A stretch of 64,000 bases of DNA, taken from Mizuhopecten yessoensis (taxonomy: Eukaryota). The position numbers and the translations under genes were made by a program. The notes below the pieces were generated by a model, which did not search any database, was not told the origin of the DNA, and saw nothing but the letters and a program-made list of their open reading frames with translations. Positions 1-55,084 of the stretch are shown in pieces. The stretch is from positions 1,549,744 to 1,613,743 of the forward strand of contig NW_018405386.1 in assembly GCF_002113885.1 (NCBI RefSeq), given 5' to 3'. Every line of letters starts with the position of its first letter. Position 1 is the first letter of the stretch.

Positions 1-1006
1 CATCCCAATGCCTCAGAGCGGTCTAGAGGCATACGCTTTCAAATATTTAACACTCAGCTTCACCTTTTTGGACATATCACCTCGGCCCCAGGGGAGCTAG
101 ATCTACACTTTTTAACCAAATGATTCCAAGGTCCCAAAATGTCTTTATGATCTCTTTTCATTATTCAGCATTGTAGGGTTAAACTGTTGAGATCTCAACT
201 GAGACACCATGGATAGATTGAATCCCAAACGCAAATCTTCGTGGTGTTGAAGTGAAAAAGGTGTGGGGTGGGGGCACAAATACCATTTACACATAGACTA
301 TGCAGTCTATTAACCTTTCTTCATCAGTAAAATAATGCATTTTAGGAGATAGTCGGTAGACCGTTGATCTGAGCAGTAATCAGTACTGGTAGCGATAATT
401 ACAGGGATTAGTAGCGGTAGTCGGGAGGGATTAACTGCTGTAATTGGTCCACCTGATATAGAATTAAACACATAAAGAGTTACTTACCATCCTTCTCACA
501 TTGGAATAAATAAAAATATATCATATCTTAATGTATTTCTATACCATTTAAAACAGGATTTATATGCAATTGTTCAGAACGCGCTCAAATAATTCCCTTT
601 AAAATGACTGAGAGTTACAATACTGTTGTAGTATGACATTTAATGTTATAAATTCTGCACACCTGTATAGGAAGATTTTATTTTCTATAAAAACTGTACG
701 ATTTTTCTAAAAGTGCTGTTGTTGTTTCAAACACGGAAGTGGCCAACTGTGCGCTGATGTGTAATCAAAGCTCCCCTAACCCCTGATTGGCCTTATAGTT
801 TAGTTTTTGTCGTGAGTGGTCTGTAGATTGTTACGTGTACCAACACTACACTTTATCTACATGTTCTACAGCTCTGATCGGAGAGTGCTACTTTGGCAGT
901 TGTATTCTGATATCGGAGGTATCTACTGTGATAGGTCACCTCTGATTGGATACTCCATGTTAAAGGTGGTCGTTTTCTGATCGAAAGTGTGTATGGGAGT
1001 GGGACA

Positions 1007-2627: not shown

Positions 2628-5600
2628 ATGCTGTTAACATCAAGTATACTCCTCGTTCTGTTGAACATCATATTCTGTTCAGCTGAAATATTAGAAAACA
2701 AACGCAGTAAGTATCTTGTGGTGTATCATTACTTATTTGATCAATTTTTCTATTTCATCACTTTAACATTTTATTCTCCTCTCCATGTTTAGCATTTTTG
2801 TCTCTAATATGTTTTGACTATTTCTTTTTTTTTTATGTTTGTTCCGATTCTGAAACAAATCCTCCTCGGACACGATATTCTGATTTCCTTTACATAAATG
2901 CAGATTTATTGATGCTGTGCTTTGTGTCTTCTTTTGTGAACAGAGGCAGATGAGCTGGATTTGATCGTGTCCATAGCTTTCCACGAGAAGATCGTACGAG
3001 AGGCTCCTGCCTTGAAGGAACTGGTAGAGAAACAAGCCGTAGAATGTGAAGCCAAACTGAACCTCACGTTTAAAGCATGTGAAAGCTGCAGAGCCAGGTA
3101 AGGTTCCATACCAATTAAAATGTGAATGTGGTTACTCTCATGTTTATGTTAAAATGATATTTGGATATCTTAAAATCGTTTATTATGATATCAACATCGA
3201 ATGCTCATCCGTCAAAGAGATATGTCGGGTTGCTATGCCTATTTCCCCAAAGCTGTGTCACGCTAGTGCGCGCATCCAACCGTGCACTGTTATGACGCCT
3301 CCTCAGGTATTTTTTTTTATGCATGTAGCAATATCGGAATTCCATGTCTAAGAATAGATTATTGTAAACAGACCACATATTTGGTATTTCGGCATTATTT
3401 GTTGGTGTTTAAGCACAATTAATAAATTTCATCAAAAATAGTGTCTTACCTACAAAGCGTAGCTGTACTGTACACGTGTACAGGGATTTGTTGACATGCT
3501 TCGATAGAAGTATCAAACCCAAGAGTCCAAGGTAATTTTGAAAAGTTGAAAATATACTCTAAAGGCTCTAAAAGCCCTTTAATTTACGTTAAGCATTTAA
3601 GCTTCGCAATGAGTACGGCACCTCCTTATAAAACGGCACAATATTTATAATAAGGTAATAATTGTTTGGGTTTTTTTTGTTTTTTGTTTTGTTCAAATTG
3701 TTTGTGTGAAAACTTTCTTTTAGGTATGAAATTATACCTCAACCAAACAAGGGCGGTCTTGACCAGCTGCTTTTACAGATATTACCGACAAGTTTGGGTG
3801 GATTAGCACTAGGTGGTGTAACTGGAAAACCGTTAGGAACACTTGTTGAGAAAACCATTCCAAGTGTAGTGAAAGATGTCGGCAGTAACCTTGAAACATT
3901 CTTCAAGGGCACGATTCCAAGGGTGGGAAAGGATATTAAGAAGCAGTTAGGGAAATTCTTCACCAAAACACTCCCTGGAACAGGGAAAACTGTTGTAAGT
4001 CATCTTGAAACCTTCTTTAAGAAGACAATACCGAAAACCGGAAAAAATGTAGGAGGCCATTTAGATACATTCTTCACAGAATCTATTCCGAAAGTGGGAA
4101 AGGATGTTGGTGGCCATCTGGAAACATTTTTCAAGAAAACACTCCCAAGCACAGGAAAAGATGTCGGAAACCATCTTCATACGTTCTTTAAGAAGTCGAT
4201 GCCAAAAGCCGGAAAGAAAGTTAAACATTTCTTCACGAATGCGATCCCTGAAGCCGGAAAGGAAGTTAAACATTTCTTTAAAAATACTATTCCAGGTAAA
4301 TAAATTTACATAGGAGTCAGAGGTATTATCAGTTTTATTGGTGAAGGTTAAAAGTTGGCTTTCATGATGAATTTACCGTTTTGTCTATGAAAATGATGAA
4401 GTGAAGCACCTGAAATATTTCATGAAACCTTTTTAGACTTTCCTTAAAAAAACTTTTAAGTTTTAGATACAAGTAAGATTTTATTTGAACTTAATAGCAC
4501 TCTCTGAAATTAAGCTCTTTTTATCAATTTACCTAACCATGATGGTACTATTGATTTTTGTGTGTGTGTCTTACTTTTCACAAGAAATTTTGATTTTCAT
4601 ATTCTCAAAAAAGTAGTACTAAAAAAAGTGGACCAGACAGAAGTCTCATATTGTTGCAAAAAATGTTACAATCAAATATTGAATGGCAAACCTTACTGAA
4701 TGAAGACGGTAGTTTCCATTCTATACATATTGTATATATATGTATCATTTATGAAAAATACATCGGAAGCAAATAAAGTATATGTAGTTTTTATATTCAG
4801 AGATTTTGCATTAATAATCATAAAAGTTTAAGTTTGTTATTGCAATTATAACATCAGAAAAGAATGTGTCCAACCTTCTGTTTAGCGGTTACAACTTGCT
4901 GTGCAAGCTTGTATTTTAAATTGTATAGTGTAATTTTTGATAGGTCTGTTTAATGGGAGACGCAGGCGACAAGCATCTCAGTGTCCCGACTGTGATAAGA
5001 TAAACACTGACACTATGACGTCAAGTGATGTGACGCGTACAGGTGAGTTGATATAAGTATTTATTCCTGAGATTACTGATAACGCCCTATTGAGTCGAGT
5101 GTTCAGAGAGACAACGCCAAAAAAAAGAAAGGAAGGAAGAAAAGAATAGACAGAGGACCAAAGTATTGCAATTGGGAGAGCAGATCAAATTTCGGTTTCT
5201 TCAATATCAAATAAGCAGAACATATAAACAAAATTGTAAAAAATCCGGATAAGCAGGGGTCCGAAGTTTGGTTTATGGGTTTATTTTGTTTAAGGTTCTA
5301 TTAACAGCTAAGGTCATTTAAGGACGTGGTTCCCACGTTAGTTGCCTCATACGTACAAGAGTGGTATACTACCCGTGTACGATTTACTACTGTAAATAAC
5401 TTTAAGAATGGGATATATTTTTTAATTGCAAAATTGTTTATTGAGTGCTATTCTTAGAAACACAAAATTTAGATCAGTACTGTTCTACATGCTGTTATGT
5501 GCGAAATTAGGTTAAATTTATAATGTCAGTTAAAAACAAGAAAAGAACTATTGTTTCTGCTAGAAGTGCTCTTCTAATCAGAAATTTATCAAAGTTTGCT

Positions 5601-7883
5601 GTGTCCAAGAAGATACTGATACACAGTTATTTGCTTAAATATGTATTCTATTATTATAGTTTACTTCTATTACTAGGTCTGTGTTGCTGCTGCTGGACTA
5701 TAGGTCCCCGAAGGCACCATACAACTAGTTGTCAATTTATCGACATAATTCGTCGCAATAACATTTTAATTCTGTCAAAATTTCTTAATCATTTTACCGT
5801 AAGGATTTAGCAACAGTTCATTACGTTTTACATTTAGGTGGGGTTTTTTTTCAATCTTTAAACGTGAACATTTTGACTTCCTGCATATGTGAGATTTAGA
5901 TAACAGAAACATGGATGCATTAAAATGATATTTTTGTCTGTGTGTTATTACTGTTATGCAGCGTTTTTAATGTCTTTTATATCATTTTTGCAATGTAAAT
6001 TACTTTGATTTTTTATAAATCTGAGTCATCAGTCAAAATAGCAAAAACATGGGAATATGCTTCATTTTATTGAAATAACAGGTAATTTGTTAGCTATATA
6101 CTTCATATCTTTCATGAATATTTTAAAGTTTCTTCTATTTCCCATGAAAGCTAGTAAATCCGTTTTATATTAGAAAAAGATATTAATAACTTGTGTTATG
6201 TTGTTTTTTTGGAAGTATGCGGACAAGCTTATGTGAACAACGTCGCACAATACAGGAAGATGGCGATCATAAACCAATTAATCCACGTCGACAAAAAACC
6301 CGTGATTACCAAGGTAAGTTATGGCCCAAATGTGAATATATTATTTGAGTTTAAAATGTAAATGCTGCATGTACAATTTGTCATAAGCTGTGTATACGCT
6401 GTACAGGGGCAACATCCCAACGATAGAGTATTTTAAATATATCATATATGTGAACCACGTAATTAGCGATAAAGTTAAGTATTTGACGACAAGTCCTATG
6501 CTGTTTTTTCTTCAAACATCTTTTGACAATAATGAACGGTTGTTAAAGATTCATTAGATAATGTATCGTTAATTTAAAAAAAAAAATCTTTCAATTGTGT
6601 TTACAAAAAATATTTGTGTTTTGGTTTTATCTCATAGTGATTATTTCTTTATATCTGCACGTGTAGTGTTTGTTTTATTTTGCTTTACTTAAGTTTGAGA
6701 ACTTTTCTAAATCTTTATTAACTTTAGGATGTTTAGGGTTTGAAATTTCTTTTATGCGGTCAGACTTCTTTTTATTATTTCTTTGTGAAAAAATTTCCCA
6801 ATGAGTCTTTAGTATTTTTCATTATGCATTTTTAAAATTTGTCTTTAAATTTCGAAGAAATTACTTGCCTTTTTACAAACGCAAAGTTGTATAGTGATTG
6901 CCTCAAGTCTTTCGGATTAACGTACGATTAACAGGTGAACTCGAATAATCTATTTCAATATTACAGTTACTAAGAATATTCTCTATCAATATTTATGTTA
7001 CTATGAATATTCTCTGTATCAATATTAAAGTTACTACGAATATTCTCTGTTTCAATATCACAGTTATGACGGATATTCGCAGAATCAACAATTCATTAAT
7101 TATTAGTATTTTACTTTATATTATTAATTAATTATATTATTAAAAGGAAAACTTAAAAAGTACAATACAATTACTACGAAGACGCTTTTGTTTGTTTATC
7201 ATTAAGTCATATTTATATTCAGTTATTATGATATTTTAAGAATACCGTAGAGACTATTTCATTTTTGACGAACATTTCCTATATCTACAATGTTCAACAT
7301 AACAGGATGACGAATATGCCATATACATGTATAAGTACATCATGCGTAACGATTATTTTTTCTTTATATCAATGAACATATGCTAATACCTAAAATTATA
7401 TTTCTATCCAAGTGTCTGCTACATATTACAATATGTCTATGTGTCTGGAATTTCTACCACACGTATGCATACTGTCCTATGTATTGCAGTTAACATAAGT
7501 GTCAGCTGTGTCAGTATATGATGCATAATGATTTCTATTCTTTATATCAATGAACATATGCTAATAGCTAAAATAGAATGTCTTTCAAAGTGTCTGCTAC
7601 ATATTGCAATATGTCAAAGTGTCTGGAATTTCTACCACACGTATGTATACTGTCCTATGTATTGCAGTTGACATAAGTGTCAGTTCTATTTCAGGTGACG
7701 TTCATGAGGAAAGATGCTGTCAATAAACTGCTAGAAGGTGTAGCTTCAGCATCACCCTTCGCTGTCACTTACACGGACGGAACAACCTCAGAAATTCTCA
7801 AATCTGACAGCACTCTCGATCTTCTGAATCCTAACCAGGCTTTGGGAGAAGAACTAGCTAAAGAAATATGGGACATGATATAA
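2628..7883 (+). CDS. Paralog A: secreted, furin-site-containing protein with cationic 19-aa amphipathic repeats (396 aa, 6 coding exons, unknown family)
   Basis: join(2628..2706,2944..3097,3724..4295,4944..5042,6216..6313,7695..7883), all AG/GT-flanked, 1191 nt in frame. Signal peptide MLLTSSILLVLLNIIFCSA; exon2 ECEAKLNLTFKACESC; exon3 TFFKKTIPKTGKNVGGHLD repeats; exon4 GLFNGRRRRQASQCPDCD; exon5 VCGQ..PVITK; exon6 VTF..LGEELAKEIWDMI*. AATAAA at 8113. Confidence 0.9.
7343..7683. repeat. About 178-bp tandem duplication in the last intron of paralog A
   Basis: TCTTTATATCAATGAACATATGCTAATA at 7361 and 7539; GTGTCTGGAATTTCTACCACACG at 7441 and 7619. Confidence 0.85.
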
Positions 7884-9438: not shown

Positions 9439-12400
9439 ATGGTCATCATGTTCTTACTATTATGGGTTAGCGTCTTGCTATTGAACTGTTTTGGCTCAGC
9501 TGTGAACCACCAACAAAGTGAGTACACAAATATTGATGATCATACATTACGAGATTTCGAACAGCCTGTTGGTGAGTTATAGAGCTGTTTGAAATATAAG
9601 GTGTTCAATTATCGTGAGAAATGGTACCGATCTATGCATGTGAAAACATCTAAAAAGGTAAAGTGATATTTGTAATTAAGAAATGTCACATAAGAGATTT
9701 TGAAATGAATAAATTTACACAACAAATTAAACATTTAACGTTAAAAGCAATGACTGTTTATTGATGCTGGTATTGTAATTTTACTTAGCAAGAACAATGG
9801 TGTCATTTGCTGGATAACGACTGGATCTAAATGAAATGGTACTATATTTCATTACTGCTAATTGTGATTTGGCCTTATCCACTTTTTAACCAGTAACCCG
9901 CCCCTCCCTCCTCCCCCCCTCCTCCCCCGTGAAATTACCAGGTGAAAGCATATTGCTTAATTTCACTGAAATTTGGTTAAAAAAAAAGTTAAGTGATAGG
10001 GCCAAAAATGTACATATGTATATTGTTAGCTTATATGCATAATGACGCGTCAAACAAACTCGTTATATAGTATAAAAGACTTTAATTTTCAGCTTATACA
10101 GATATATTTATTCTTGTATTCAGCATGACGCAAAGCTGTCCAAATTTGCAGTAATAACAGACTATATATCATGTCTCACTTTGATAGTTAAACACGAAAG
10201 TTAGAGACCCCGTCAATCATCACCAGAATTTTACACTGGACTCCAACAAGGGGACAGACTTCCATAAGACTTCCGTTGGTGTAATTTATTGCAAAGTTAT
10301 CATCATAAACCTTTCTTTTCTGTGTTAATATAAGCGTGAAAAGTGAAAACCCTACCAGTTATTGAAATTATGAAATCTGTTTCTATGTCTAAAATGTAAT
10401 TTCAGGAGATAATCTTTTGCTTGATTTCTTTTAAATATTTACATTTAAAGCACAGTCATATTGGAAATTCAACACACACATAGACAAACAAAAACTACAA
10501 GAGAATACTGAAATGTCAACAAAATTGTAATTCTAATTCCAAATGGATAAAATTAGGACAAAAAATGAACAGGAAAAATAAAAATAAATGCATTGAGTCT
10601 TTTAAAAACGAACAAGGAGAATAAGACCAGGTGTTCCGGAACGATAAGCGTCCTCTAATTCATAACAACATGCAAATCTAGGTCAAATTTGAGTAAAGTC
10701 ATGTCCTCATAGCGAGAACTAGGGGTTGACACTAAGGAAACATAAACAAATTATTGTCACAAATCTTTATTTACATGTTAGTTATTTAGTGTCACTCTCC
10801 TAGTTCTCGCTTCATCAGTTTAGCTAAGTTTTTTTTGAACACCACCTTTTAAACTAAATATGCACATGAACCATGATTTCGCACTGCCCATCATCTGTCA
10901 GGTGATATTTTATGGAAAATGTAATGTAATGCTTTAATTGACGATCTCTAATTGTAAGCTATCGCTATCTGAGAAATTAGTTTGGGAATGTCTAGCACAT
11001 TTTCTCTTGACAAGTAACTATCTTTTTTGTCCTAACCCTGGTTATGTCAGGTGATTGGGACTAGTGCTCAGTGCCACCATTGTGTATGCAACTACACTGT
11101 CGTAAGAGGAAGCTGCGACAGGGGTTAACTTTGTTGCTTCCGGCATTATATACACACAGTTAAAGGTATTAAATACCATAAAGTGGTAATAAACCATGGA
11201 TACCAATACTCATTCACAAACCCTTGTCAATATAGATAATAAAAAAATATTTTCATTTCGGCTTAAAAATAAAAGATTATTTATTAGTTATTTTTGTAGT
11301 AATAAAAAATTGTTTAAATGGAACATCTGTTTTTTTTGCAACATTAATCATTTACAGATTAACAAAACTCATATTTAGATAAAAAAAAAGAAGCTTGTAT
11401 AGATCAACAGTCTTTATTTACAGATCAACAAGGTCTGCGACAAGGGGTAAACTTTGTTGCTTCCGGCATTGTATACACACAGTTAAAGGTATTAAATACC
11501 ATAAAGTGGTAATAAACCATGGATACCAATACTCATTTACAGACCCTTGTCAATATAGATAATAAAAAATATTTTCATTTCGGCTTAAAAATAAAAAAAA
11601 ATGTTTAAATGGAACATCTGTTTTTTTGCAACATTAATCATTTACAGATTAACAATACTCGTATTTAGATAAAAAAAAAAAATAAGCTTGTATAGATCAA
11701 CAGTCTTTATCTACAGATCAACAATGCTCATATATAGATTAAAATTAATCTTTTATATATCAACTGTCCTCATTAATAGATCAACAATGCTCATATAGAG
11801 ATCAGAAATAATCTTTTATAGATCAACATTTCCAATTTACAGATCAACAATACTCAAATTCAGATCAGAAATAATCTTTTATAGGTCAACAGTACTCATT
11901 AACAGATCAACAATGCTCATATTTAGATCAGAAATAATCTTTTATAGGTCAACAGTACTCATTAACAGATCAACAATGCTCATATTTAGATCAGAAATAA
12001 TATTTTATAGGTCAACAGTACTCATTACAGATAAATGCCAAGATTAACACCTAAATTATTCTGAATAAATACACTAATGATTTGACACACTCATGATATA
12101 AAAACCTACATAGAAAAGGCACATTCATAAAATAGCGAAATGTCTCATCACGAAAAGCGCTACAATTAATATACCGCTAAAACATACACGTTAACAGTAA
12201 CTATTTGCAGACAATTAATAACATATACAAACAAGAAAGATGTTTTGGTATCTGAAAATACAAATTTTGATATTTACAGAAGCGAAAGAGCTCAATGAGA
12301 TAGTGACACGAATTTACCGTGATAGGATCTTACGAGAATTCTACACTTATAAGGATCTTGTAAAACAACAAGAATTGGAATGTGAAACAAAAGTAAACGA

Positions 12401-15400
12401 GACAAAAGCTACCTGTCACACCTGTATATCGAGGTAAGACTAATGAAACAATTAAATGAAATAGTAATGTTTATTTCATGTTAAATTTTATCAAATAAAA
12501 ATGCATCAAATAACAATTAACTATCTAGAGACCTTCATTGTCAAACGTTAATGCATAACGTTCTTTTTTATGATATTTTTTTTATAACACAAAGATAGTC
12601 GTTACAACATTTTGCGACCTTTGAAATACGTCTGTTTCCTTTGTCAAGCAAAGAGTCACATGACCAATGTCTTGACTCTAACCTGCTGGAACTAACTCAT
12701 TAAGCCACAATGTGCCGAGTCAGTAACGTCAGCTGACATTTCGTCCGAATAACACCCTTGTACTGCAGACAGTCGGAGGGCCGAGTGATATGTTTATCCA
12801 TTCAGCCCCCTTATGTTATTTTGTATTATTTTACAGGTACAGTGATACATCACTACAGATTGACAATGTCACCAAGACACCAAAAACCAGCGATGTAAAC
12901 ATATCTACATTTGCTAATACCTTTCCAAACATCAATGGCGATAGTCTATCAGCAGTACGCGGTATAACCGAACCAACCATTGGTAGCGAAATACCACCCA
13001 GCAGTTCAACGAAAACGAGCAAAAACATAAACATACCGCTCAAAAGTAGTAGTAGCGATAGCTTACCAACCGTCAGTGATACTGTAATACCAACCACCAG
13101 TAGTAATAGTATACCATCTACCACTAGTGATAGTTTACCAACCACCAGTGATACTGTAATACCAACCACCAGTAGTAATAGCATACCATCTACCACTAGT
13201 GATAGTTTACCAACCGCCAGCGATACTGTAGTACCAACCACCAGTAGTAATAGCATACCATCTACCACTAGTGATAGTTTACCAACCGCCAGCGATATCG
13301 GAACACCAACTACCAGAAATGATATCTTACCAATCATCACTGAAACTGTAACGCTAACAACCACTGATAATGGCATACCAACCACCAGTAAAATAGCATC
13401 ACTAACCACAAGTATTCATAACCTACCAACAATCCCTGATATTGAAACATCAACAACAAGTAGTAATTCCATGACAACCATCAGTGATATTGTAAACCTA
13501 ACCACCAGTGATATAAATGAAAACACTAGAATTGGTAATAACATACCAACCACACATGATATAAAAACAATGCCGACCAAACAGGGTAGTTCGTTACGAA
13601 TTATAAGTAATACAACGACACCAGCCGACAGTAGCATTAAGATACCTCCCAAACACAATAGTACGTTACCAACTACAGGTAAATCAACCACCCCAGCCGA
13701 CAGTAGCATTAAGATACCTACCAAACACAGTGGTACGTTACCGACTACAGGTAAATCAACCACACCAGCCGACAGGAGCATTAAGATAACTACCAAACAC
13801 AGTGGTACGATACCAATTACAGGTAAATCAACCACACCAGCCGACAGTAGCATTAAGATACCTACCAAACACGGTAGTGCGTTACCAACTACAGGTAAAT
13901 CAACCACACCAGCCGACAGACGCATAAAGATGCCTACCAAACACAGTGGTACGTTACCAGCCATAGGTAAATCAACCACACCAGCCGACAGTAGCATAAA
14001 GATACCTACCAAACAGGGTAATATCACACCAACCAGCAGTCGTAACACATTAACAACAATCCGTGATAATAACATGATAACCATCACTGGTAATATCACA
14101 CCAACACTCACTAATGATAACAAACCAACCATCAGCGTAAATAACAGGCCGGCCATCGGAGGAAATGACATTCCAACTATAAGTGGTGATAATATACCAA
14201 CCACCATTGGCGATAACATACCATCAATTAGTGGTAATAGCCAACCGACCGTCAGGGGTGATAAACTAACCATCACCAGTGGTGATAATATACCAACCAT
14301 CAGTAGTGATAACATACCAACAATCAGTCGGGATAACATAACCGTTAGTGGTGATAACATACCAACCGTCAGTAGCGATAGAATATCAACGGTCAGTAGT
14401 GATATTATAACACCAATAATTGGTGATAACATACCAACCATTAGTGGTGATAACAAACAAACCTCCAGGGATGATAAAATACCAACAACCAATGGTGGAA
14501 ACATACTAACTACCATTGGTGATAACATACCAAGCAGCAGTGGAGATAGCATACCAACAACCAGAGGTGATACCATACTAACTACCATTGGTGATAACAT
14601 ACTAACTACCATTGGTGATAACATACCAAGCATCAGTGGAGATAGCATACCAACAACCAGAGGTGATACCATACCAACAACCAATGGTGAAAACATACTA
14701 ACTACCATTGGTGATAACAAACCAAGCATCAGTGGAGATGACATACCAACAACCAGAGGTGATACCATACTAACTACCATTGGTGATAACATACCAAGCA
14801 TCAGTGGAGATAGCATACCAACAACCAGAGGTGATACCATACTAACTACCATTGGTGATAACATACCAAGCAGAAGTGGAGATAGCATACCAACAACCAG
14901 AGGTGATACCATACCAACAACCAGTGGTGAAAACATACTAGCTACCATTGGTGATAACATACCAAGCATCAGTGGAGATAGCATACCAACAACCAGAGGT
15001 GATACCATATCAACAACCAATGGTGAAAACATACTAACTACCATTGGTGATAACAAACCAAGCATCAATGGAGATGACATACCAACAACCAGAGGTGATA
15101 CCATATTAACTACCATTGGTGATAACATACCAAGCATCAGTGGAGATAACATACCAACAACCAGAGGTGTTAACATACCAACAACCAATGGTGGAAACAT
15201 ACTAACTACCATTGGTGATAACAAACCAAGCATCAGTGGAGATGACATACCACCAACCAGTCGTGATAACATACCAACTACCTTTGGTGGTACCATACAA
15301 ACCATCGGAGGGGATAGCATACCAACCGTCAGTGGCATTGACATATCAACCATCAGTGGTAATGGCATACCAACTATCAGTGCAAATAACATACCAACCA

Positions 15401-18400
15401 TCAATGATACAAAAATACCACCCATAAGCGGTGATAACAAGCCAACAGGTAGTGAAAATAAGATACAAACCGTCAGTGGTGATAACATACCAACAATCAG
15501 TGGTAATATCATACCGACCATCAGTGGTAATAGCCTACCGACCATCAGTGGTAATATCATACCGACCATCAGTGGTAATAGCCTACCGACCATCAGTGGT
15601 AATAACAAACACACCATTAGTGATAATAACATACCGACCTACAGTGATAATAACATACACACCTACAGTGATAATAACATACCAACAGTCAAGGATATTA
15701 AAATGTCTAAAATCCCTAGTAATAACGTTAAAACAATCAGTGCTCATAACATTCCAAAAATGAGGGAAAACACGCTTCAAAGAATTATTAACAGGCCAAT
15801 CATGAGTAGTAACAACAGACCAGTTCACAATATCAATATTATATTACCTTTTAGCCGTAATAACCTTTCAGATAGACAAACCAACGATAAGAACAATGTA
15901 CCGATTTCTCCTGGTAGTCGGGAACTAGCCATGAGTGGAAATGAACTGGCAGAAGAGAATATAGTCAAGATAGAAAGCAGCAGTTTAATCAAGGTATCAA
16001 CTGTTGTTAATCTTATTGAAAATACAGCAAAGAACAGTGGCCTAGTAATTCTAAATACCAGTGGTTTTAACCGAAAAGATATTAATGATACTACACAACT
16101 AATTAACACGGTTACTGAACATACAAATACCAGTGGTTTTAACCGAAAAGATATTAATGATACTACACAACTAATTAACACGGTTACTGAACATACAAAT
16201 ACCAGTGGTTTTAACCGAAAAGATATTAATGATACTACACAACTAATTAACACGGTTACTGAACATACAAATACCAGTGGTTTTAACCGAAAAGATATTA
16301 ATGATACTACACAACTAATTAACACGGTTACTGAACATACAAATACCAGTGGTTTTAACCGAAAAGATATTAATGATACTACACAACTAATTAACACGGT
16401 TACTGAACATACAAATACCAGTGGTTTTAACCGAAAAGATATTAATGATACTACACAACTAATTAACACGGTTACTGAACATACAAATACCAGTGATGTT
16501 AACATAACAACTAGTGAGGAAATTGACCAATTGCTTACAGAGATAGAATCTCAAAGTCTGCTGGGTACTGGTATTTCTCTTACAAATGTAGTGCAGTCGC
16601 CGCTTACAAAACTGGTTGGGAAAACCGTTCCAAATATTGTTAGTAAAATCGTTCCAACCCGTGATGTTAACATAACAACTAGTGACGAAATTGACAAATT
16701 GCTTACAGAGATAGAATCTCAAAATCTGCTGGGTACTGGTATTGCTCTTACAAATGTAGTGCAGTCGCCGCTTACAGAACTGGTTGGGAAAACCGTTCCA
16801 AAGATTGTTAGTAAAGTCGTTCCAAACATTGTTAGTAAAGTCGTTCCAAATATTTTTAGTAAAATAGATAGTAACATTGAACCGTTGTTCAAAGAGACGC
16901 TTCCAAAGGTTGGAAAGGCGATTGGGAAAAATGTGGAAACCTTCTTTAGCAGTACACTTCCAAAGGTCCGTGTTGGAGAACCTCTTGAAAAAGTAGTTAC
17001 TAAAACACTCCCTGAGGCTTCAAAAGGATTCGGAAAACATCTTGATACGTTCGTTTCCAAGTTACTCCCAGATACTGCAAAGTTAATCGGCAGCAATGTT
17101 AAATCTTTCCTTGATACGAAGACTTTCCGTTTACCTAAGAATGTTGGAAGTTATCTTGAAACATTTTTCACTGAGACTATCCCTAAGGCTGGTAGAAGTG
17201 TTGGAGGCCATTTGGAGACATTTATCACGAAGACGATTCCAGGTAATCTCCTTGCTTTTTTTCTAACCTCTTATAATTAATGATAATGAGTCGTTTATAT
17301 TCCATATTGTTATCACTTTCTTTCCTGATTGATTAATTTTGGAAACATATGAAATGGCAGAAAAACAACATCGAAATGAAATTAAAGTGCACGGAAAACA
17401 TAGTCTGGTCGTTGGAAGTATCGCTATTTTTTGCATGTAAGCAAACAAAAGGTAAAAGCGCAATTTTGGACAATTTAATTTGGCAAATATTTAAGATAGC
17501 ACTCCTCCTTGTCAAAAATCAAACTTCTTACGACAAATGGAAGCGAGAAAAGCCTACAAAATCACTATTTTGCCATTATAAATATTTTCACTCGCTATAC
17601 TCGTTATTAGGAAAACGCTTCGTGTGGCTCATACACATTGGTAAGTAAAAGAACCAGTGGTGAAAAAGATAATCCATAATTAATATCTATAGTAATTTTA
17701 TTCAGCATACATGCGGTGCGCATAAATATCATGTTTGGCAAAAACAAATTATGATGGTGATATTGTTAGTATTCACCTAAATGCTGTCGAAGTTTGACAT
17801 TGAATTGTTTCAATGTTTTGGATTTAGGATGAACACTCAATAATCAAAGGTTAAGATAGTATCATAGTTGTACCTTTTCGAATAATGACAAAATAGTGAC
17901 TGGGATTCTACTCTATGCTACTTCAGCGAACTGCAAATTGCATTTTGCAATTGTATTAAAAATTGGAAAAAGACATTTTTTCTTATGTTTTCTTATATTA
18001 TCAACAATTATGTATTTTTCAAAATACACAGTTTTGGCATGTACCGAATGGATATATTCACACGCTACTACGAGTACAAGCCTAATGTTGTTGCCGAATA
18101 TTTACCATATGTGGGTGGTTATTGTATTTTTCCTGTATTATTGTGTTATTATTTACGTTTTGATAAATGTTTAGGGATTGACCCGAATAAAAAGACATAT
18201 GATTTCGTACGCTTCGCTGAATTATTTCTTTTCTTATAAACATGGGTATAGCTATTACTCAGAAGATCTTTAGTTTCCTTTCAAGATGCGTCTTGCTGAC
18301 TACTTTCATTTATGATCATTTATTATTAGAAAATGCAATTAATTAGCTATTTAATGTTTTGTATATTGTTCCTTTTGTCTAGTCAGAAAAGTATGTCTTG

Positions 18401-21388
18401 ACTAATAGTTAAAAATCATGTTGATTTGATGTTTGACATTGACCTGGTGTAGATCCCCGGACCCGCCAATGTTGGGGAGCCTGAAGTTGGTTCCTAGTTC
18501 CTAGTTCCTAATAACTAGACCCTAGTTCCGTTTAAGGTAAACGGAACTAGGAACCAGACCCTAGTTCCGTTTAACATAAACGGAACTGGGAACCAGACCC
18601 TAGTTCCGTTTAACATGTGCAAGTTAATATAAAACATGTACACATAATCAAGATATATGATATGCAAGGAAGCACCGTTTACAATTCACCGCGTAGAGCT
18701 ATGACATTTTATGTGTTTGTAGGTGTGTTTGGCCGCAGACGAAGACGACAGATTTCGCAGTGTATATCATGTGACGAAATCAACAACATGACTGTCACGG
18801 AACGCAAACATGCTGGTGGGTTTTACAGAAAGCTTTACTTGTATATCAGCTAACAGCTTGTTAGGAGTTTATCTAATATTATTTTAAAACACCAGTGTTA
18901 GAAGCATCCTTTCAGTATTTTTCAATTACTTTTAAGACTAATTTTATTATGAACAGTTAAAAGTAAATCAATCTTTTATTTGTACGGAAAGCTTACAATG
19001 CTGAATGGGAAAGCTACTAACCGCTACATCCTTATATTAACATAAGTTGTCGATGTCAATCTAGTTACACAGTAACCACAAAGAATGAGACCATTGTCTT
19101 CAATATAAGTAAGTTAAACTGCAAGATAAATGTCATTACCTGTGGTTTTTAGTATAGATCATTGAAGTATGAGAAATTTCATCCCTATTTTCTTGTAATA
19201 AACATCGTATATCATATTTTATTTTCATTTTAGTGTGTTGTATTTAATCTCATTATGTATTCTTATTAAGCAAACAGATTACTACATCATCGTTTTTTAA
19301 ATGTTTTACAATCGTTCTGTTATAAGTAATAAGTATGTTAGTTTTAGTCATTATTCAATTGATTCAACAAAACATGTCATTTCCGAGGAAAAGTGTGTTA
19401 TAGAGTTTAATTATTCACCACATTGGCCACATATAACATTACCACGCCATAACGATATTGTCAAGTTCAAAACTGCCTTTCCTCAGCGAGCGATTAATCA
19501 TTTTCGTTTCTGTGGATACTTCGCCACTTTTCTATTGTAAATAGGCATTTGAAAGTACTTTTTCTGTTCTATGTTAAATACAAAGAAAATTATAGGTTGA
19601 AGGCATTTTAGGGAGTCAAAACATAATGAACTACTTGCCAAGATCATAATGCTGCAGGAAAAATATCGAAAATATATTTTCGCCGGTAGCACAATGGATA
19701 CGTTCCGTTCATTTTAATCAAGAGGTCCGCGGATCGATTCCCTGTAGTGGATACGTGTTTTGTAAGAAAGGTTATTTATTTTTCACATATTTCTTTCGTA
19801 AATATCCCTTTGCTTTACAATAAATAAACAAGCAATTCGAAATAAGAATATTTCCAAACAAATTGTGTTTTTTCCTCGTAAGAGAAACGAATCCGACCAC
19901 CATGATTTCTAACCTTCACATGCTTGCTTAACGTTTCCAAAAACGTTACATATTTTACAGACTCCTTTTATATTCATCTATATTTCAGTGTGTGGAGTTG
20001 ATCCGGCCAAACAGTTTGAAAAGATGGTAAAACTAGGCAATCAGATCTTTCTAAATAGAAAACCCATCATAACAGAAGTAAGTAAAGCATAATCATGAAT
20101 TTATATTAATTTATCAAAATTCATACTAATGTATTGGTAAAAAAATCTCTAATACTAATTATAAGATAAGAAGACTTACTGTCAGAGGTTCATAACCAAA
20201 TGTAATCAAATAATAAATTATTTATATATCAAAAACCGGTTTTATGAAATATTTCATAGATACATTTCATAATAGAGATCAGCCAATGTGTTCCCTTCAT
20301 TAATGGCAAAGAAGCTTTGTGCCTTTCATTAGATTTAAACATATGTAACAAAACAAATTATAATTCACGAAGTAAGTTTTCGGTTCCTTTAAGCGTTAAT
20401 TTTGTAATACGTTTGAACGGATATAAAAAGTGAGTAATCTCATTAGTTAAGATACGTTTCAAAACGACACTCATATTGGCTATAAGCTAACCAGCCACGC
20501 GTGGATTTCTTTGTGTAGTACAGGATATCCTATATTCAAATTTCATGGTTGTCAGCTCCTACTTTTACTAGACGTATATAGTCAATATATACATCTGAAA
20601 TAATACCTAAATAAGATTTATCATTTGGGAATATATGATGTCAAAGTTTTACTTTATATACAAATAATGTACAATGACCGACTGGTCCCTTTGTTAAGCC
20701 AACAAATTGACCAGTCGGTCTTGAAACGTTTAATACGTACATTGTTTGTGTATATAGTAAACAATTGACAATACATTTAAAAATATTCCGTTAATTCAAT
20801 GGGCCACATAAATAACAGGTTATGGCGGTTCGACTGATGCAGCTAAGAAAACCAAGATTTTATTAATACAAGAAACGATACTTTCTGCTTTAAAGTCATT
20901 AATGTTTGTTCCACAAACAAGAGACTAACTAACCTTATTGTTTATATATCACTATCAATCATTACAATTCATAATGTTTTCTAAGAATTATTCAAATGCG
21001 TTAAGCATTTCAATGTAACCGCTTGATCAAGTGCCTGAAAAAATACATGGCAAATGTGTAAATGCTAGGTTTCATATTTGTAAACATGCATAACAAAAGT
21101 ATATTTCCATGAAAATGTGAGATGACGTCAATATATGAGAATATACGTAACAAATAATCACTTCTATTTAACCGCTAGGTGACGTACAATAGAGCGGACG
21201 TGACACGCTTAATTAGGAAAGGGGTTGTCACAGTACCGTCCTTTATGGTAACATACAACGTTGGAGGTTTCACCAAAACGCAACAGATAAATAGGACTCT
21301 GGACCTGCTGAGTTCCAACCAGGATATAGGAGAAGACCTTGCCACGGAAATATGGAATTTATTCTTCACCACAAACATGCCTATCTGA
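9439..21388 (+). CDS. Paralog B: same family, with a giant Thr/Ser/Pro/Asp-rich mucin-like expansion in exon 3 (about 1676 aa)
   Basis: join(9439..9517,12280..12433,12837..17242,18723..18815,19989..20077,21179..21388), 5031 nt in frame. Exon 1 (79 nt) and exon 2 (154 nt) match paralog A in size. Signal MVIMFLLLWVSVLLLNCFGSA; CETKVNETKATCHTC; GVFGRRRRRQISQCISCD; VCG..PIITE; ..IGEDLATEIWNLFF. AATAAA at 21506. Confidence 0.88.
11112..12030. repeat. About 320-bp direct duplication followed by an about 60-bp degenerate tandem repeat in intron 1 of paralog B
   Basis: CTGCGACA..AACTTTGTTGCTTCCGGCATT..GGATACCAATACTC at about 11112 and 11434; then repeated CAGATCAACAATGCTCATATTTAGATCAGAAATAATC. Confidence 0.85.
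16054..16485 (+). repeat. Six perfect 72-nt coding repeats (NTSGFNRKDINDTTQLINTVTEHT) in paralog B exon 3
   Basis: AATACCAGTGGTTTTAACCG.. at 16054, 16126 and onward with period 72. Confidence 0.95.
18518..18616. repeat. 39-bp tandem repeat of a palindromic unit (2.5 copies)
   Basis: GACCCTAGTTCCGTTTA-agg-TAAACGGAACTAGGAACCA; units start at 18518, 18557 and 18596. Confidence 0.9.
19682..19755 (+). mobile_element. Possible tRNA-derived SINE head or tRNA-like remnant
   Basis: Pol III A-box-like TAGCACAATGG (19687-19697) and B-box-like GGATCGATTCC (19731-19741); no convincing cloverleaf. Confidence 0.4.
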
Positions 21389-27047: not shown

Positions 27048-27536
27048 ATGTATCTATTTAAGTAATAAGCATCCAACCAACATTTGTTAGTTCGGATACA
27101 GTGCCAATATTGGATCATACTGTCGTTATTACTCATAAGACCCATATATATATTTATATATATAACATATATTGAAAACCAAATAATATTAGGTACCAAG
27201 TATTACGGTTTTAATGTAAACTGCATTACATGTATATTACATATTACAGCATAGCCTTGTTATTTCTAGTTACAGCACGTCACTGACACACGTGAAGGTA
27301 TAATTAATGGTGTGTGAATTTTAGCCGCGTATCTCCTGGTTTAATGTGCCGACACGCATATCATCAGTTTTAGCAACAATAACAATTTGATTGTTTATGG
27401 CATAATTTGGTTCATCTTTGGGGTTTTAACGTCCAGTGATTACTACACACAGGTGTTTTTTTAGGTCAGGTTGGTACCTTTGAACTTATTTCATGAAAAA
27501 CAATCAACATGTTATTTTGTGTTGATAAGGTTCAGG

Positions 27537-27668: not shown

Positions 27669-27725
27669 AGGGGTGTACATTGTGAAAAACTATTCTGACC
27701 TAAAAGAGGGCAACATACTTCAACC

Positions 27726-30700
27726 ATGATCCTGTCAGCTTGTTTGTGCCTGGTCCTGCTCAACTTGGGGTTGACATCCGCAGTCGTCCATGATAGTGAT
27801 GATAGTAAGTTTTTTTTTTATATATTTGATTATGCTACTTATCAAATGAAATTATCACAACATTAAAATTTAACCAGTTATTTTGTAGCTGAAGAAATAT
27901 GTAAAAGTCAGGAGTCGTTAGACAAGAATTCTTATTCAATACTTTTTTAATGTTCTGATTGCAAGACTTGCATTTAAATGTATTATGATGTCAAAAATAA
28001 CGTACTATCATTGCATAAAATAGATACCCGATTTATTTATTTATTTAAATGGCGATCCTCCATTTGCCTGATAATTCCTGTTTCAATGTTCTCTCGACAT
28101 CGGTTTCGGAGCCATTAAAATACAACCGCAATATTACACCATTTGAAATCAGCAGGGACTGTAATTAATATGCGGGCAATCTAAAAATGGAAACGAAAAA
28201 ACAGTTACTGAATTCTATATCTTATTTAAATATACGAACAAACATTCGTCAAATAAATATTATCTGCCTGGAATGTTCGGTATGTGTTTCAAACGGGGAC
28301 TGTGATCACAGTATTCAAAGAGTGACATTTCGAACATACTTTCCCTATACCAACATATCTTGCTGTTTAATTCAAGTATCTATAATTAACGTATAATTAA
28401 TTATCAAAAATGTTTCCTCCCTTTAATTGATTTTTCAACTTGTTGATATTAATATATTTATGATATCTTTTTACTTATAAATGCATGTTGATAATAGAAG
28501 TTGTTAATCATTGTTCGTGTACTTTTCAGTTTTAGTTGTACGGTTAATAACTTTTATTTTCTATTCTTTTTAACTATTGAGTTACAAGGCAACGAAAATT
28601 GTTTTTAGCTGACTGTGTTCATTGATTTAAGGATGTCTTCAGGCTTCGGCAGAAAAAGTCCTAGTGAAAACTATGATTTTGTAGTGAGCAAAGTAAAACG
28701 TGTACTAAGCAAACATGTAAATATATGCGTATTTCTTCGCCACGTTGTCGTGTGAAACAGCTGGATAAATTGCAGCTACAGAACACTTATCGCTCCGGAG
28801 TCGATGCTCAGAAGATAACATATTTCTTCGTTTCATTGATGTTGAGCAAGCCCATCTAGTTTTGAAAACAAGCAAACTGTATAATAAGCCTAAGTTTGTA
28901 TACGGTTACACATAACATAAATTATGTAAAAATGCATCGACTCACAAGGACAAAAAAGTTTGACAAGTTTGTATACGGTTACAAATTTAGTTATATTTAA
29001 CCCTTTCATCCCTATGTAACTTCAGTAAACTATACCATGCATTGATTTGGTTGAGTCGATTATGGTCTACAGTGGTGAAAGGGTTAACAATGTATCAAAC
29101 ACAATATGAAATGGTTGAGTTTTCTCCGTCTGCATAACACAGGAGTGATTTGTTATTTTTCTGTCATACTTGCTACTGTGAAACAAAAGTTGCAATCGTT
29201 AACCCTATGTACCGCGCAATTATATATGCGCGACAAAACTGATGACGAATCATGGTAGCGTTGCATAAAATGATGACGCGATGGTGACGTTTTCAGAATA
29301 ACAGTGCGTGTGCGCTGTCTTTCCCTTGGTAGGCTATAAAATGGTTTATCTTTTCCAGACAACAGCGGGAATGCGCCTGTAAAGTGTTGAAGAATCAGTT
29401 TTCTTATCTGCATGACATAAATGGGGTATACATTGTGTGTTCTTATTAGTTTGGTAAATGCCCATTACTCAATTTAAATCATAACTTGTTTCATACTTGT
29501 GTCAAACGAAAACATTTCACATGCTTGGTATACTCAATTTGTTTTCTTTTTCTTTGTACAGAGGCCACAGAAATCAATTACTATGTAGTAATAAATTTTC
29601 AGCGGAGATACAATGACGATTTTCCTGCTCTGGAGAAAAAACTTGAGGACGCATCACGACAATGCGAACTGAAAATCAACACAACGATCGATACCTGTTT
29701 GGCCTGTATTAAAAGGTATCTATCCACTAATAAAGGGAACAACGGACATTTTTAATCCATTTCCTAGGTACATAATATTTTGTATAAATATGCTAATGTG
29801 TTGCGATAGTTTAAATACTTGCAGTGGGTTTGGTGTATAAGAGCATAAAGTTTTCCTTTCTTATTATGTTGTGTTGCCTTTGAACTATGATTCCATCTTT
29901 GTACTCTGTGGTATATTCAGGCGTATTATGTATCAACATTTCTTATTTATATTCTTACAGAAACCAAAATTCTGGCCATTCACCAGGAAGTGTCGGATTT
30001 GATCAAGTTATTTTAGGTATTATCCCAGCCCCCTTCCGTACTGGGTTGGACAAGTTTGGTAAAGGATTGAATTTCGCAAAGAAAATCCCAAATTTTATTA
30101 CAGGCACCATTCCAAAGACAGCCGAAAACGTCGGAAAAGAGGTCGGTAAATTTGTCACTGGTACGATTCCGAACACTGCCAAAAATATTGGCAAGGAGTT
30201 TGGTACCTTCTTCACCGGCACATTACCTGGAGTTACTAAAAATGTAGGAAAGGAATTAGGCACATTCTTCACCGGCACGATACCGAAAGTAGGCAAAACA
30301 ATCGGCAATGGCTTCAAAAGTTTTGGTAACTCTTTGAAAGGTAATTATCCAATTATATATTCATAAAAATATAGTAAATTTATAGTTATATTTAAAAGAG
30401 TGCAACGAAGAATTAGTATCTTAACAAGTTAAAAAATAATATTGGTCAGAAATAGAGAAAGTGTAACTCAATTCCCAGAACACAATTACACCCAACATAA
30501 ATTCAATAGAAATATATTATTGATACATTTAATACAATAAACAAATACTACTGTACGGGTTATACATAGTATTGAGCTAATCTGTTAGTTTTTGTATGTA
30601 TACATCAGACATATATCACCATCTTTAATATCTAGTAGTGAAATGTAGCTACTTACATAGACTATTAAGCTGTCACGTGTAGGTGATTAAGTTCATATGC

Positions 30701-31004
30701 AAATAGTTGAGCTTTCATATGAAGCTGTTCAGAAGACGAACGTAACACACACACACAGGTATAAAATGCTATTCGAAAATTATGTCAGTATATGTCCATA
30801 TCAATGCATGCATGTGTCATAGAAATATTCATACACATGTGTATATATAATTATGTACATCTGACAGTTTGCACAGTGTATTTATTACTGTTTCTTAACT
30901 GCTCGAAATTATGCGTGCATAATGATACATCCGATTCAATGTATGTAAGTCTGTCTCAATGTATACATGTATGTATGTTCTGTCTGTCTGTCTGTGTGTC
31001 TGGT

Positions 31005-31039
<35 letters not shown>

Positions 31040-33832
31040 GCATGTCTGTATGTCTGCCTGTCGGGGTAGTTGTCTGTCTGTCTGTCTGTGTGTCTGTCTC
31101 TGTCTGTCTGTCTGTCTCATGTATGTGTGTATGAGTATATATGTAGATGTATTTGTATGTGTATTATGTTTTTTGTTTATACTAGACGTGCTATGTTTAT
31201 CCTTGCTTGTAATATTATGTTGTATATGGAATTTGTTGGGGTGTGAAAGAAGTATGTTTTGTGTTCTTGTCCTGTACTCTGTTTACAAATATTTTATTTT
31301 CCCATTGCCCTTCCTATTTATTTAGTTATTGTTTGACTGATGGATGTTGAATGAGAACCCTCCTGTGTGAGGACACCATATTGTTCAGGGGCTTACTCCA
31401 GGGCTGCCCAACCCTGGCATCCCCTATCAAAATATTTATATATGTATATATATCTGCTTGGAAGCAGTATATGTATATACATATTTATGAAAAAAAAATG
31501 GCTGGGGGAATAAAATATTTGAACCTAAAAATTTAAAACAAAAACAAAAAAAAACACACACAGGTGATTGCACCTTCAAAATTCAGTAATACACACAGAA
31601 TGCCAAAATGAATGACACTGCACCATACATCTGTTTCATCCTTCCATGATTCATTGGTGATGCTAGAGGGCTAGACTGGTCTAGACTACTGTATATTCAT
31701 AATTAACATTTAAATGCCATATCGAGGTGTTATATATAAGGAGTAACTGTCATATGAAGCTTTGTGTGTATTATATATAACTGGCATGTGCTGTTGATAC
31801 AATTTAGGAGTCATATATAACCTATTTACTCTTTCATCCTTGAAATTTCATAATGAACTATTCCAACGCTTGAACTGGAAGAGGTCAAATGCATCTTCAG
31901 GGGTGATATATACTTGAATTCATTAACCATACTCACTGGGTTTTTTTTGTTTTGTTTTGCTATTTATAAATTGTATGGAATTGAGCTAATTTTCTACAAA
32001 TGTTCACGTATCTGCAGATTTGTTCGGACGCAGAAGGAGAAGGGCAGCATCGGTTTGTCCTTCCTGCGACAAAATTGACAGCGACAAGTTAACTGCAGAG
32101 GAGATCCGGAGGGCTGGTTAGTATTTCTGATAACATCAATACCACTTACAAATACGTAGCTTCTCTTTGTCAATGACCCTACAGATAAAGCACAATAAGT
32201 GATACTTACATAATATATTACATTCTGTAGTTGCTAAAATGATAGCATGCAATTTGTTACGAATATATGAAAACATAATTCTAAAATTCATTTGTGAAAA
32301 CCAAATGATTTTGTTATTTTGATGCGAGGTTAAGTTTTGGTGAAGAATATATATCATATAACTTAAGTACGTATTTCGTTTAAAGAAGAGTTCCATAATT
32401 CAATGAAAACAAGGAAAATATCGTAAACAATATAAGTTCCTATTGTCTATCTAAGTAACACCATGTCCAAAGTAAAAATAGCATTCAATGATGTTTGTTT
32501 ACCCTTCAAAAACAGTGTGCGGACAAGAATTATTCAACATCTTTGAAGAATACGTCGATGCATCAAACGTCTTCCAGTGGCTGGCAGATGAAAACGCTAT
32601 CGTTACCAAGGTAAATCCATAATCAGAATTATAATGCAAATTCAAAAGACGTGCGTTCTTTCATTAAAAGTGAACGGAGATCGATCGTTTTAAGTTCATT
32701 CTATTATATATTTTTATTTGATAATATATATAATAATATATTTGTTATTAATATTCATACTCGCATTATCAGAATAACTTGCAGCTTCTCTTGATATTGT
32801 CGTTTTATTAAGTCCCCAAAACGAATTTGCTGCGTTTCATCTTATGATTATTATTCTGCATTTTCCTTATATTTTTCCCGCAAAATAGCGTCCAGAGATT
32901 TTTTTTCAGAAACTACTATCTTGATACAAATGAAATTTTAGATAAGCATTCGTAGACATATGAAAATATGCGCAACACGTTCCTTTTTTTCCGATCGTCA
33001 TCAAACATGGCCGTCGTGGTCTATAAATGATTGACAAAGTAATGGGTGTACGCCAAGGTGATGCCAACTGTCCTTCTCTTTGTCTGAATTTGCTACAACT
33101 TAACTTGTAAGGGTATAACAGCAATGTAAATTCTTTGCAATGCGTCATTTGTATTTATGTAAATGTCCTCGTTTCAATTAGAACTAGTTACAATTAATAA
33201 ACGGAATGGGACTTTGTTTTAAAAAAAAAAAAATGTAGCTGTTGCTATCATGACTTAATACTATTCCCCTATATCTGTTTTAAGCGTGTTAGTTTCAATG
33301 TTTTTTTTTTACATTTTCGTTGTGTGTAAAATTTATGACCATAGTTTTCTATTTTAACATTGGGTATATATGTTACAAAATTATGATTTGTTACACAGGG
33401 AAAAACCAAACGAATTGTTTATTATGTGACTTAATTAATGAAAACCGGTTTCTATAAAATAATCTAAATCAATAAAATATATTTTTAAAACTTAAAATAA
33501 TCATTATAATAATAATAAAAAAAAACTGTTTGCTCTCAAATATAACGTTATACTATTAATATAATAAAACGCATTTGAATTATTATCATTGAATTATGTT
33601 TTTTTTTTTACAGGTGTCGTTCAATACAGATGATACAACTAGTAAACCTCTACAGAAAATTTTTACTGTGAAGCCGTTCACTGTCACCTACAGTATTGGA
33701 GCTGGTGCTGCTTCAAATGAGTACACAGAAACCAACGCAATACTGGACATCAACGACTACACCAATGCTGCATTTGGCGATGCCCTTGCTAACAAAATCT
33801 GGAAGGAATACGTTCCTGGAGCTGCAGCGTAA
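27726..33832 (+). CDS. Paralog C: same family (341 aa)
   Basis: join(27726..27804,29562..29715,29961..30340,32018..32116,32516..32610,33614..33832), 1026 nt in frame. Signal MILSACLCLVLLNLGLTSA; CELKINTTIDTCLAC; four TFFTGTIP-type repeats; DLFGRRRRRAASVCPSCD; VCGQ..AIVTK; ..FGDALANKIWKEYVPGAAA*. TATATAA at 27661, AATAAA at 33953. Confidence 0.92.
30960..31130. repeat. (TCTG)n microsatellite in intron 3 of paralog C
   Basis: Directly visible. Confidence 0.9.
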
Positions 33833-55000: not shown

Positions 55001-55055
55001 CAGATGTCAGTAAAAACCTGATCAGAAACAAGCAGGAATACTTGTCCATGTTCAT
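49010..55055 (-). CDS. Paralog E: inverted sister of paralog C (339 aa)
   Basis: complement join(55055..54977,51681..51528,51268..50892,50532..50434,50196..50099,49222..49010), 1020 nt in frame. MNMDKYSCLFLIRFLLTSA; CKTQINKTIHTCLAC; TFFTETIP-type repeats; GLFGLRRRRATSGCPSCD; VCGD..IIVTQ; VSFRTEDT..FGHFLAEKIWDEYVFEY*. Confidence 0.88.
52920..54400. repeat. 33-35-bp minisatellite in intron 1 of paralog E
   Basis: CTAACCAACTTTGAGTTCTAATTTAGTCCTTGTGT units. Confidence 0.95.
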
Positions 55056-55084
55056 GTTTAAAGTCTGTTTGCGGTCTGGTCAGA

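Follow-up and report, generated by a model that had tools for sequence, protein, structure and literature searches.

Five tandem scallop genes for putative two-chain secreted proteins that are built like clusterin and probably related to it

Clusterin (apolipoprotein J; PDB 7ZET and 7ZEU) is a chaperone and lipoprotein component of vertebrate blood and acts as an ATP-independent holdase. Its two chains, separated by a furin-like cut, are joined by the antiparallel bridges 102-313, 113-305, 116-302, 121-295, and 129-285, and a glycan is carried on N103 (PMC10488069, in its accessible parts). In the crystal structure, as presented in the accessible parts of PMC12527946, a coiled coil is combined with a disulfide domain and with a three-stranded sheet round the C-terminal helix, flanked by the first helix. 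The furin cut lies in a disordered loop between the cysteine clusters and gives rise to disordered tails, which are Phe-rich and Lys-poor. Both holdase activity and the formation of lipid discs depend on these tails and on an amphipathic helix. The representative homologs given in the same parts of that paper all come from jawed vertebrates, and clusterin is described there as phylogenetically younger than the small heat-shock proteins (PMC12527946). Here, we describe five related six-exon genes, A, B, and C on the forward strand and D and E on the reverse strand, in a 64,000-nucleotide stretch of DNA from the scallop Mizuhopecten yessoensis (contig NW_018405386.1), hereafter the window, within which family copies were counted. 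The five genes probably constitute a scallop family of secreted proteins with a clusterin fold that are remote homologs of clusterin.

A conserved pattern of cysteines, sequon, and furin-type site

Gene A (2628..7883, forward strand, as are all of its features) has six coding exons, and its product is identical to protein P0001. Exon 1 (2628..2706) supplies the start codon and a predicted signal peptide of approximately residues 1-19 with C17 inside it, and intron 1 interrupts codon 27 in phase 1. Exon 2 (2944..3097) encodes a long predicted N-terminal helix with C61 (3045-3047), the sequon N66-x-T68 (3060-3068), C72 (3078-3080), and C75 (3087-3089), and is followed by exon 3 (3724..4295), whose 190 residues include no cysteine and form the predicted tethered tail. 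Exon 4 (4944..5042), in phase 1 at both ends, contains RRRR (4958-4969, residues 274-277), C282 (4982-4984), and C285 (4991-4993). Exon 5 (6216..6313) contributes C303 (6218-6220) of a VCG motif, a predicted return helix (residues 305-326), and the beginning of the first strand of an alpha/beta domain. The coding part of exon 6 (7695..7883), with further beta strands and a C-terminal helix (residues 382-395), lies beyond the region considered in the initial annotation of this DNA, yet within the fold.

That annotation had described, for all five mature proteins, three exon 2 cysteines spaced C-x10-C-x2-C, a cysteine-free exon 3, and a poly-Arg site followed by C-x2-C and then VCG, with an N-x-T sequon at the same place between the first and second cysteines. 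Each element was recovered in all five paralogs: R-X-[RK]-R is present in exon 4 of every gene, and the sequons (NLT, NET, NTT, NQT, and NKT) all lie at Cys1+5. The sixth cysteine, that of VCG, is in each case encoded by the first complete codon of exon 5 and is separated from the fifth by x17 (x15 in gene B). Additional cysteines, one or two per paralog, are confined to exon 1, within the inferred signal peptide. In an alignment of 15 scallop protein rows from four genera, which includes near-duplicates and four rows from M. yessoensis, the six cysteines, N66, T68, and four arginines are invariant, and the furin-type consensus R-X-[RK]-R is found in 15 of 15 rows. The middle position of the sequon takes six different residues, and all four Thr codons are in use for its threonine across the paralogs. 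Since the paralog cores are just 29-55% identical, the shared pattern does not merely reflect recent duplication. Further, non-invariant sequons are carried by the products of genes B, D, and E.

The N-terminus is hydrophobic in all four full-length proteins tested (12-residue hydropathy of 2.0-3.0), and no transmembrane segment was found after it (highest 19-residue hydropathy, 1.5). As judged from their sequences, the products are secreted precursors with a signal-like N-terminus and no membrane anchor.

The putative cut site lies four to five residues before the first C-side cysteine; in gene D the distance from the first site is 14. In gene D (43794-43922, reverse strand), as in its three orthologs, the furin consensus occurs twice at a distance of ten residues, as RRRR and as R-x-R-R (RMRR in D), and cleavage at both sites would free a short spacer peptide. 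In gene A (4970-4972, forward strand), in its orthologs, and in exon 4 of gene B, the last arginine is followed by Gln; a new chain starting with Gln could cyclise to pyroglutamate.

Relatives of the five proteins were sought in three word-limited homolog searches, in which 6 of 7,541, 7 of 8,000, and 10 of 7,998 candidates matched, all of them from Pectinidae, and in one full-library search with a 50-column profile, which returned seven matches. One of these seven, P0009, was dropped as false, being a repetitive protein without cysteines. These searches revealed no relative outside the pectinids, which does not show absence elsewhere; uncharacterised proteins of similar layout are presumably present in other molluscs. 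The family members span four pectinid genera. In a tree of the 15 cores, to be read with a long-branch warning, A, C/E, and D each group with proteins of other genera, and these subfamilies have been kept as orthologs over three to four genera. No ortholog of gene B was present among the search matches.

Predicted fold and comparison with clusterin

Two AlphaFold models were obtained, model 1 from P0001 with ten alignment rows and model 2 from P0010 with 15. Model 1 consists of a strand (residues 21-23), a helix (25-78), a stretch with a predicted local distance difference test (pLDDT) score below 50 (80-279), short helices around C282-C303, and a C-terminal part with a helix (305-326), five strands in 332-371, and a final helix (382-395). 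It is confident at its two ends only, and model 2 shows the same order of elements. The initial annotation had proposed that the exon 2 and exon 5 helices form a hairpin from which exon 3 loops out. The hairpin is supported by the predicted helices and by their pairing in structural matches, many coiled-coil rows being aligned to residues 46..315 of the model, and the low score at 80-279 agrees with a loose loop.

Among 48,161 solved chains, human clusterin was the best structural match of both models, aligned from end to end. For model 1 the comparison gave Z 6.9 and a root-mean-square deviation (rmsd) of 6.2 over 135 aligned residues, 22..396 on 25..442, with the next row at 5.0; for model 2 it gave Z 6.9 and rmsd 4.2 over 115 residues, with the next at 4.5. 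A second comparison, with clusterin chain 7zeu_D, gave Z 7.4, rmsd 4.1, and 16% identity over 114 aligned residues, and the next other protein scored 4.2. In a Foldseek search with model 1, clusterin chains occupied ranks 1-3 (E 0.015-0.078). Taken alone, the fold match is suggestive only.

Features that lie outside these scores agree as well. As in clusterin, a signal peptide is followed by a long N-terminal helix that has C-x10-C-x2-C at its end and a sequon between Cys1 and Cys2; a furin-type site stands in a disordered, Phe-rich stretch between two cysteine clusters; and a lone cysteine after C-x2-C precedes the return helix, C-terminal strands, and a final helix. The spacing of clusterin C102-x10-C113-x2-C116 is exactly that of scallop C61-x10-C72-x2-C75, and C302-x2-C305...C313 is mirrored by C282-x2-C285...C303, although the last spacing is x7 in the former and x17 in the latter.

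The introns of human CLU are presumably in phase 1 in codons 33, 277, and 312 and in phase 0 after residue 388, and would then match scallop introns 1, 3, 4, and 5 in phase. Intron places were compared with brackets for human CLU taken from the accessible parts of four papers. Two introns are bracketed at I308-N317, a span that includes C313, and at T388-T393, a place in the alpha/beta domain with 57-61 residues still to follow (PMC4502563, PMC3296573). Intron 4 of scallop gene A, in the codon before C303, is comparable with the first of these. Intron 5 is comparable with the second: it follows K334, lies in the first strand, and has 62 residues after it. For intron 1, in codon 27, the comparable human bracket is 28-34 (PMC2831070, PMC3779157), but introns after signal peptides are common. 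The correspondence of intron 3 to the bracket 270-279 (PMC3296573, PMC4502563) is poorly anchored.

Because the cysteine spacings, the cut, the sequon region, and the intron places agree, independently of the structural scores, we place the clusterin reading above what the fold score would give and regard remote homology to vertebrate clusterin as likely. Judged strictly by defining features, the scallop proteins fall outside the clusterin family; they share the build of clusterin and are probably related to it.

Following clusterin and general secretory biology, the signal peptide of the gene A product would be removed and a glycan attached to N66. The exon 2 and exon 5 helices are predicted to pair as an antiparallel hairpin, one end of which would be closed by the C-terminal alpha/beta domain, with the N-terminal segment at its flank, and the other by a disulfide ladder. 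If the cysteines pair as in clusterin, the bridges would be C61-C303, C72-C285, and C75-C282, and cleavage in the Golgi after R277 would produce an N-chain of ca. 258 residues and a C-chain of ca. 119 residues, separable only by reduction. In a helical-wheel projection, C61, C72, and C75 deviate from the hydrophobic face by 22, 2, and 62 degrees and N66 by 118 degrees, positions as expected if the cysteines are at an interface and the glycan is exposed. The inter-chain disulfide proposed in the initial annotation is supported by the prediction and by clusterin, the matching cysteines of which form interchain bridges; the analogy points to three bridges across the cut, where the proposal required only one. 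The alpha/beta domain, an addition to the earlier two-chain model, would also join the two chains in the predicted structure. A complex prediction for residues 19-82 with 278-396 gave a score of 0.01; the alignment was unused in this prediction and the fold of the partner was uncertain, and the score weighs on neither side. By analogy with clusterin, the two-chain model gains support and takes a more definite form, a clusterin-type ladder of three bridges.

The exon 3 tail and its possible functions

Exon 3 encodes 125-190 amphipathic residues; in gene B it encodes 1,468, most of them mucin-like. The distance from the third cysteine to the first furin site is 120-202 residues in 15 stored proteins and ca. 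1,480 in gene B. The mean hydrophobic moment of exon 3 exceeds that of shuffled sequences by 5.3-8.1 standard deviations in all five paralogs (for gene B, in the last 230 residues only). A period of 19 residues (best 19 and 38) is seen in A, C, and E and weakly in B, but not in D; in gene A the repeats are proline-punctuated, amphipathic, and rich in Phe and Lys. Net charge is +16 in A, +10 in C, +9 in the tail of B, and 0 in D and E; Lys accounts for 11-15% of residues except in D (6%), and Phe for 8-10% in A, C, and E, compared with 4-5% in B and D. Exon 3 of gene D is Gly/Ser-rich and neutral. The tail is thus Phe-rich in A, C, and E, as in clusterin; unlike that of clusterin, it is a 19-residue repeat, mostly Lys-rich.

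Since the cut adjoins the first C-side cysteine, the whole of exon 3 would stay on the N-chain as one long tail, with a C-side stub of four to five residues; clusterin has instead two short tails that flank the cut. We propose that the amphipathic helices of the tail may bind lipid surfaces or exposed hydrophobic protein, which is the weakest step of the model, and that the molecule may be a stable glycosylated handle carrying an exchangeable lipid-binding or holdase tail. The tail would be retuned by paralog, with a positive charge in A, B, and C, no net charge in D and E, and a mucin extension in B. By analogy, we give a lipoprotein or holdase role of the tail about an even chance. The candidate functions, namely lipoprotein or holdase, defence, and structural secretion, are non-exclusive across paralogs.

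The proline-punctuated amphipathic helical repeats of exon 3 also resemble those of apolipoprotein A-IV and other exchangeable apolipoproteins. The repeats of the latter have a period of 11/22 residues, in contrast to 19 in the scallop proteins, and we know of no disulfide ladder or furin cut in them. A weak match to apolipoprotein A-IV was obtained with the full profile (E 0.0023); it is probably compositional.

The charge of exon 3 in A, C, and the tail of B, its Lys content, and its high hydrophobic moment would also suit a membrane-active defence molecule, displayed on the core or released by further proteolysis, like the helical antimicrobial peptides. Such a role is compatible with clusterin ancestry, and tandem duplication with fast change of the tail, as well as a weak Pfam match (E 0.017, below the cut-off) to an antimicrobial peptide family of frogs, point the same way. 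It is, however, difficult to extend to the D and E tails, whose net charge is 0; no furin consensus that could free the tail is present on the N-side of exon 3, and the A, C/E, and D subfamilies have been retained as orthologs over three to four genera. We consider a defence role rather unlikely.

Gene B suggests a different use of the tail. Its exon 3 encodes ca. 1,240 residues of repeats that are rich in Ser and Thr (S+T 31%) and carry many sequons, followed by the amphipathic repeats of the family, and as read from the sequence it is a mucin inserted at the tail position. The exon itself (12837-17242, forward strand) is one open exon of 4.4 kb with several tandem arrays of 24 residues (72-nucleotide period) and a 56-residue duplication. 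A mucin of this kind would fit a structural secretion protein of mucus, byssus, shell matrix, or egg coat, with a knotted core for anchoring or cross-linking and a tail that makes up a gel or fibre, and expression of gene A, whose exons were covered in two of four runs, looks restricted for that reason, as would also fit such a protein. Yet A, C, D, and E lack mucin repeats, and the six cysteines can all pair within one molecule. A structural role appears unlikely for the family.

Common descent with clusterin or convergence

Several observations weigh against common descent with clusterin. The mean pLDDT is 54 and 59 for the two models, which share most of their alignment rows; all Z scores are below 8, a range that may reflect a common arrangement. 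With model 2, Foldseek placed clusterin at rank 8 (E 0.58), behind outer-membrane efflux proteins, and neither model gave a Foldseek match at E 0.001 or better. Neither clusterin nor another family was matched in Pfam with ten exon pieces, ten full proteins, and nine C-terminal parts, and clusterin was not matched in four PDB sequence searches. In the match to apolipoprotein A-IV, no single stretch scores below E 0.069, and a designed helical repeat gave a better score. No human counterpart was established for scallop intron 2. The mature scallop proteins have six cysteines and three predicted bridges, against ten and five in clusterin; the last cysteine spacing is x17 rather than x7; the sequon is at Cys1+5 rather than Cys1+1 (N103); the cut precedes the C302-equivalent cysteine by four residues rather than 74; and the tails of A, B, C, and E are Lys-rich, whereas those of clusterin are Lys-poor. 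Finally, since the searches gave relatives in Pectinidae alone, the gap to clusterin is not spanned by intermediates.

Other differences concern the extent of the molecule. Counterparts of the clusterin bridges 121-295 and 129-285 are absent, and one sequon is invariant in the scallop proteins, against six N-glycans in clusterin. The hairpin arms are approximately half as long (34 residues from intron 1 to Cys1, versus ca. 69), and the last cysteine lies 93-102 residues from the end, versus 136. The third coiled-coil helix of the clusterin fold was not seen in the models, and helices 4-7 have no confident scallop counterpart. There are five tandem scallop genes and a single-copy human clusterin gene. 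A search of the ESM Atlas revealed no family, its single row, at 0.75, being within the chance range.

The same two-chain disulfide-linked hairpin could have arisen by convergence, in a scallop-specific secreted scaffold that resembles clusterin. The absence of a sequence-level link to clusterin, Z scores of 6.9-7.4, and the finding of relatives in scallops only are what convergence would lead one to expect, and helical hairpins with small alpha/beta caps are common. However, a single protein, clusterin, agrees in the order of the fold, the cysteine spacing, the cut between clusters, the region of the sequon, and two brackets for introns, and intron positions are not predicted by convergence, which we judge to be quite improbable.

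That the C-x2-C pairs serve as metal-binding sites or redox motifs and not as interchain bridges, as their two occurrences and weak thioredoxin-like and zinc-ribbon rows in Pfam (E 0.09-0.19, far below the cut-off) might hint, is highly improbable for a secretory-pathway protein with a sequon and a furin site, the cysteines of such proteins being usually oxidised. The equivalent motifs of clusterin are structural bridges (PMC10488069, in its accessible parts). The proteins share a signal peptide, a poly-Arg site, C-x2-C, and an N-glycan (a sequon in the scallop proteins) with furin-cut, disulfide-linked viral envelope proteins, but differ from them in having five conserved introns and no transmembrane segment; a viral envelope origin was rejected, the best match in a viral fold library having E 0.27.

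If the relationship to clusterin is true, the clusterin fold is far older than vertebrates, and its origin moves to at least the protostome-deuterostome split. The minimal clusterin core would then comprise three bridges, a short hairpin, and an alpha/beta cap, and the scallop genes would provide natural tail swaps with which to test the claim that clusterin tails carry function. They would also give a testable identity to five uncharacterised genes of a farmed bivalve. Tentatively, and with slightly less than even confidence, we suggest that clusterin derives from a small bilaterian ancestor in which a furin-cut hairpin, with a ladder of three bridges and an alpha/beta cap, displayed a swappable, exon-encoded tail. 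Scallops would have kept an expanded family with apolipoprotein-like, cationic, and mucin tails, amounting to unrecognised protostome extracellular chaperones or lipoproteins, and vertebrates would have added two bridges, more helices, and glycans.

A literature search yielded no paper on an invertebrate clusterin (most subscription papers were outside it, and some queries were swamped by words such as "clustering") and none on the gene ids of the five scallop genes. An invertebrate clusterin is not named in the accessible parts of PMC13580247, preprint 10.1101/2024.10.30.620894, PMC8526713, PMC6403191, PMC9892467, or PMC7472309. The clusterin mentions related to bivalves in the accessible parts of two of these proved to be clusterin-associated protein 1 and human CLU (PMC9892467, PMC7472309).

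Gene models and other features of the window

All 25 introns of the five gene models are bounded by GT..AG, the intron phases are 1,2,1,1,0 in every gene, and no internal stops are present. Splicing of gene A as modelled was observed in two of four runs, in each of which all five introns appear as joints within one contig (first joint, 2706-2944); no reads from its exons were found in two raw RNA runs, 18-19% of each of which was examined. Two intronic regions of gene A, 5276-5328 and 3225-3513, consist of short interspersed repeats and attract many partial reads from elsewhere in the genome.

Gene B (9448..21388, forward strand; exons 9448-9517, 12280-12433, 12837-17242, 18723-18815, 19989-20077, and 21179-21388) encodes 1,673 residues in a model based on homology and splice sites only. 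The product of gene C (27726..33832, forward strand; exons 27726-27804, 29562-29715, 29961-30340, 32018-32116, 32516-32610, and 33614-33832) has 341 residues and is identical to P0015. Gene D (40481..45939, reverse strand; exons 45939-45849, 45418-45274, 44754-44261, 43922-43794, 41108-40999, and 40672-40481) encodes ca. 386 residues, with a base N at 40486 near the stop, and was modelled from homology and splice sites and also from the orthologs P0005, P0011, and P0012. The 339-residue product of gene E (49010..55055, reverse strand; exons 55055-54977, 51681-51528, 51268-50892, 50532-50434, 50196-50099, and 49222-49010) is identical to P0016. In their sources, P0001, P0015, and P0016 are uncharacterised proteins of M. 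yessoensis.

Genes C (27260-33813, forward strand) and E (49023-55400, reverse strand) are duplicates in inverted orientation. Complementarity amounts to 71-87% in their exons and in non-coding stretches upstream, among them a block of 53 nucleotides ca. 100-160 nucleotides before the start codons. Approximately 900 nucleotides upstream of the start codon of gene D (46813-46900, reverse strand), a TATA-like word is followed by a short stretch that leads to a splice donor and may be a non-coding first exon. Long minisatellites with periods of 34, 29, 35, and 17 are present at 34185-36758, 41361-43560, 52921-54396, and 61100-61679, respectively, and two of the four sit in introns of genes D and E. 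Outside the five genes, an open frame at 62631-62906 (reverse strand) had no Pfam match at E 0.01; its middle part resembles an exon of a peroxisomal 2,4-dienoyl-CoA reductase or a related short-chain dehydrogenase.

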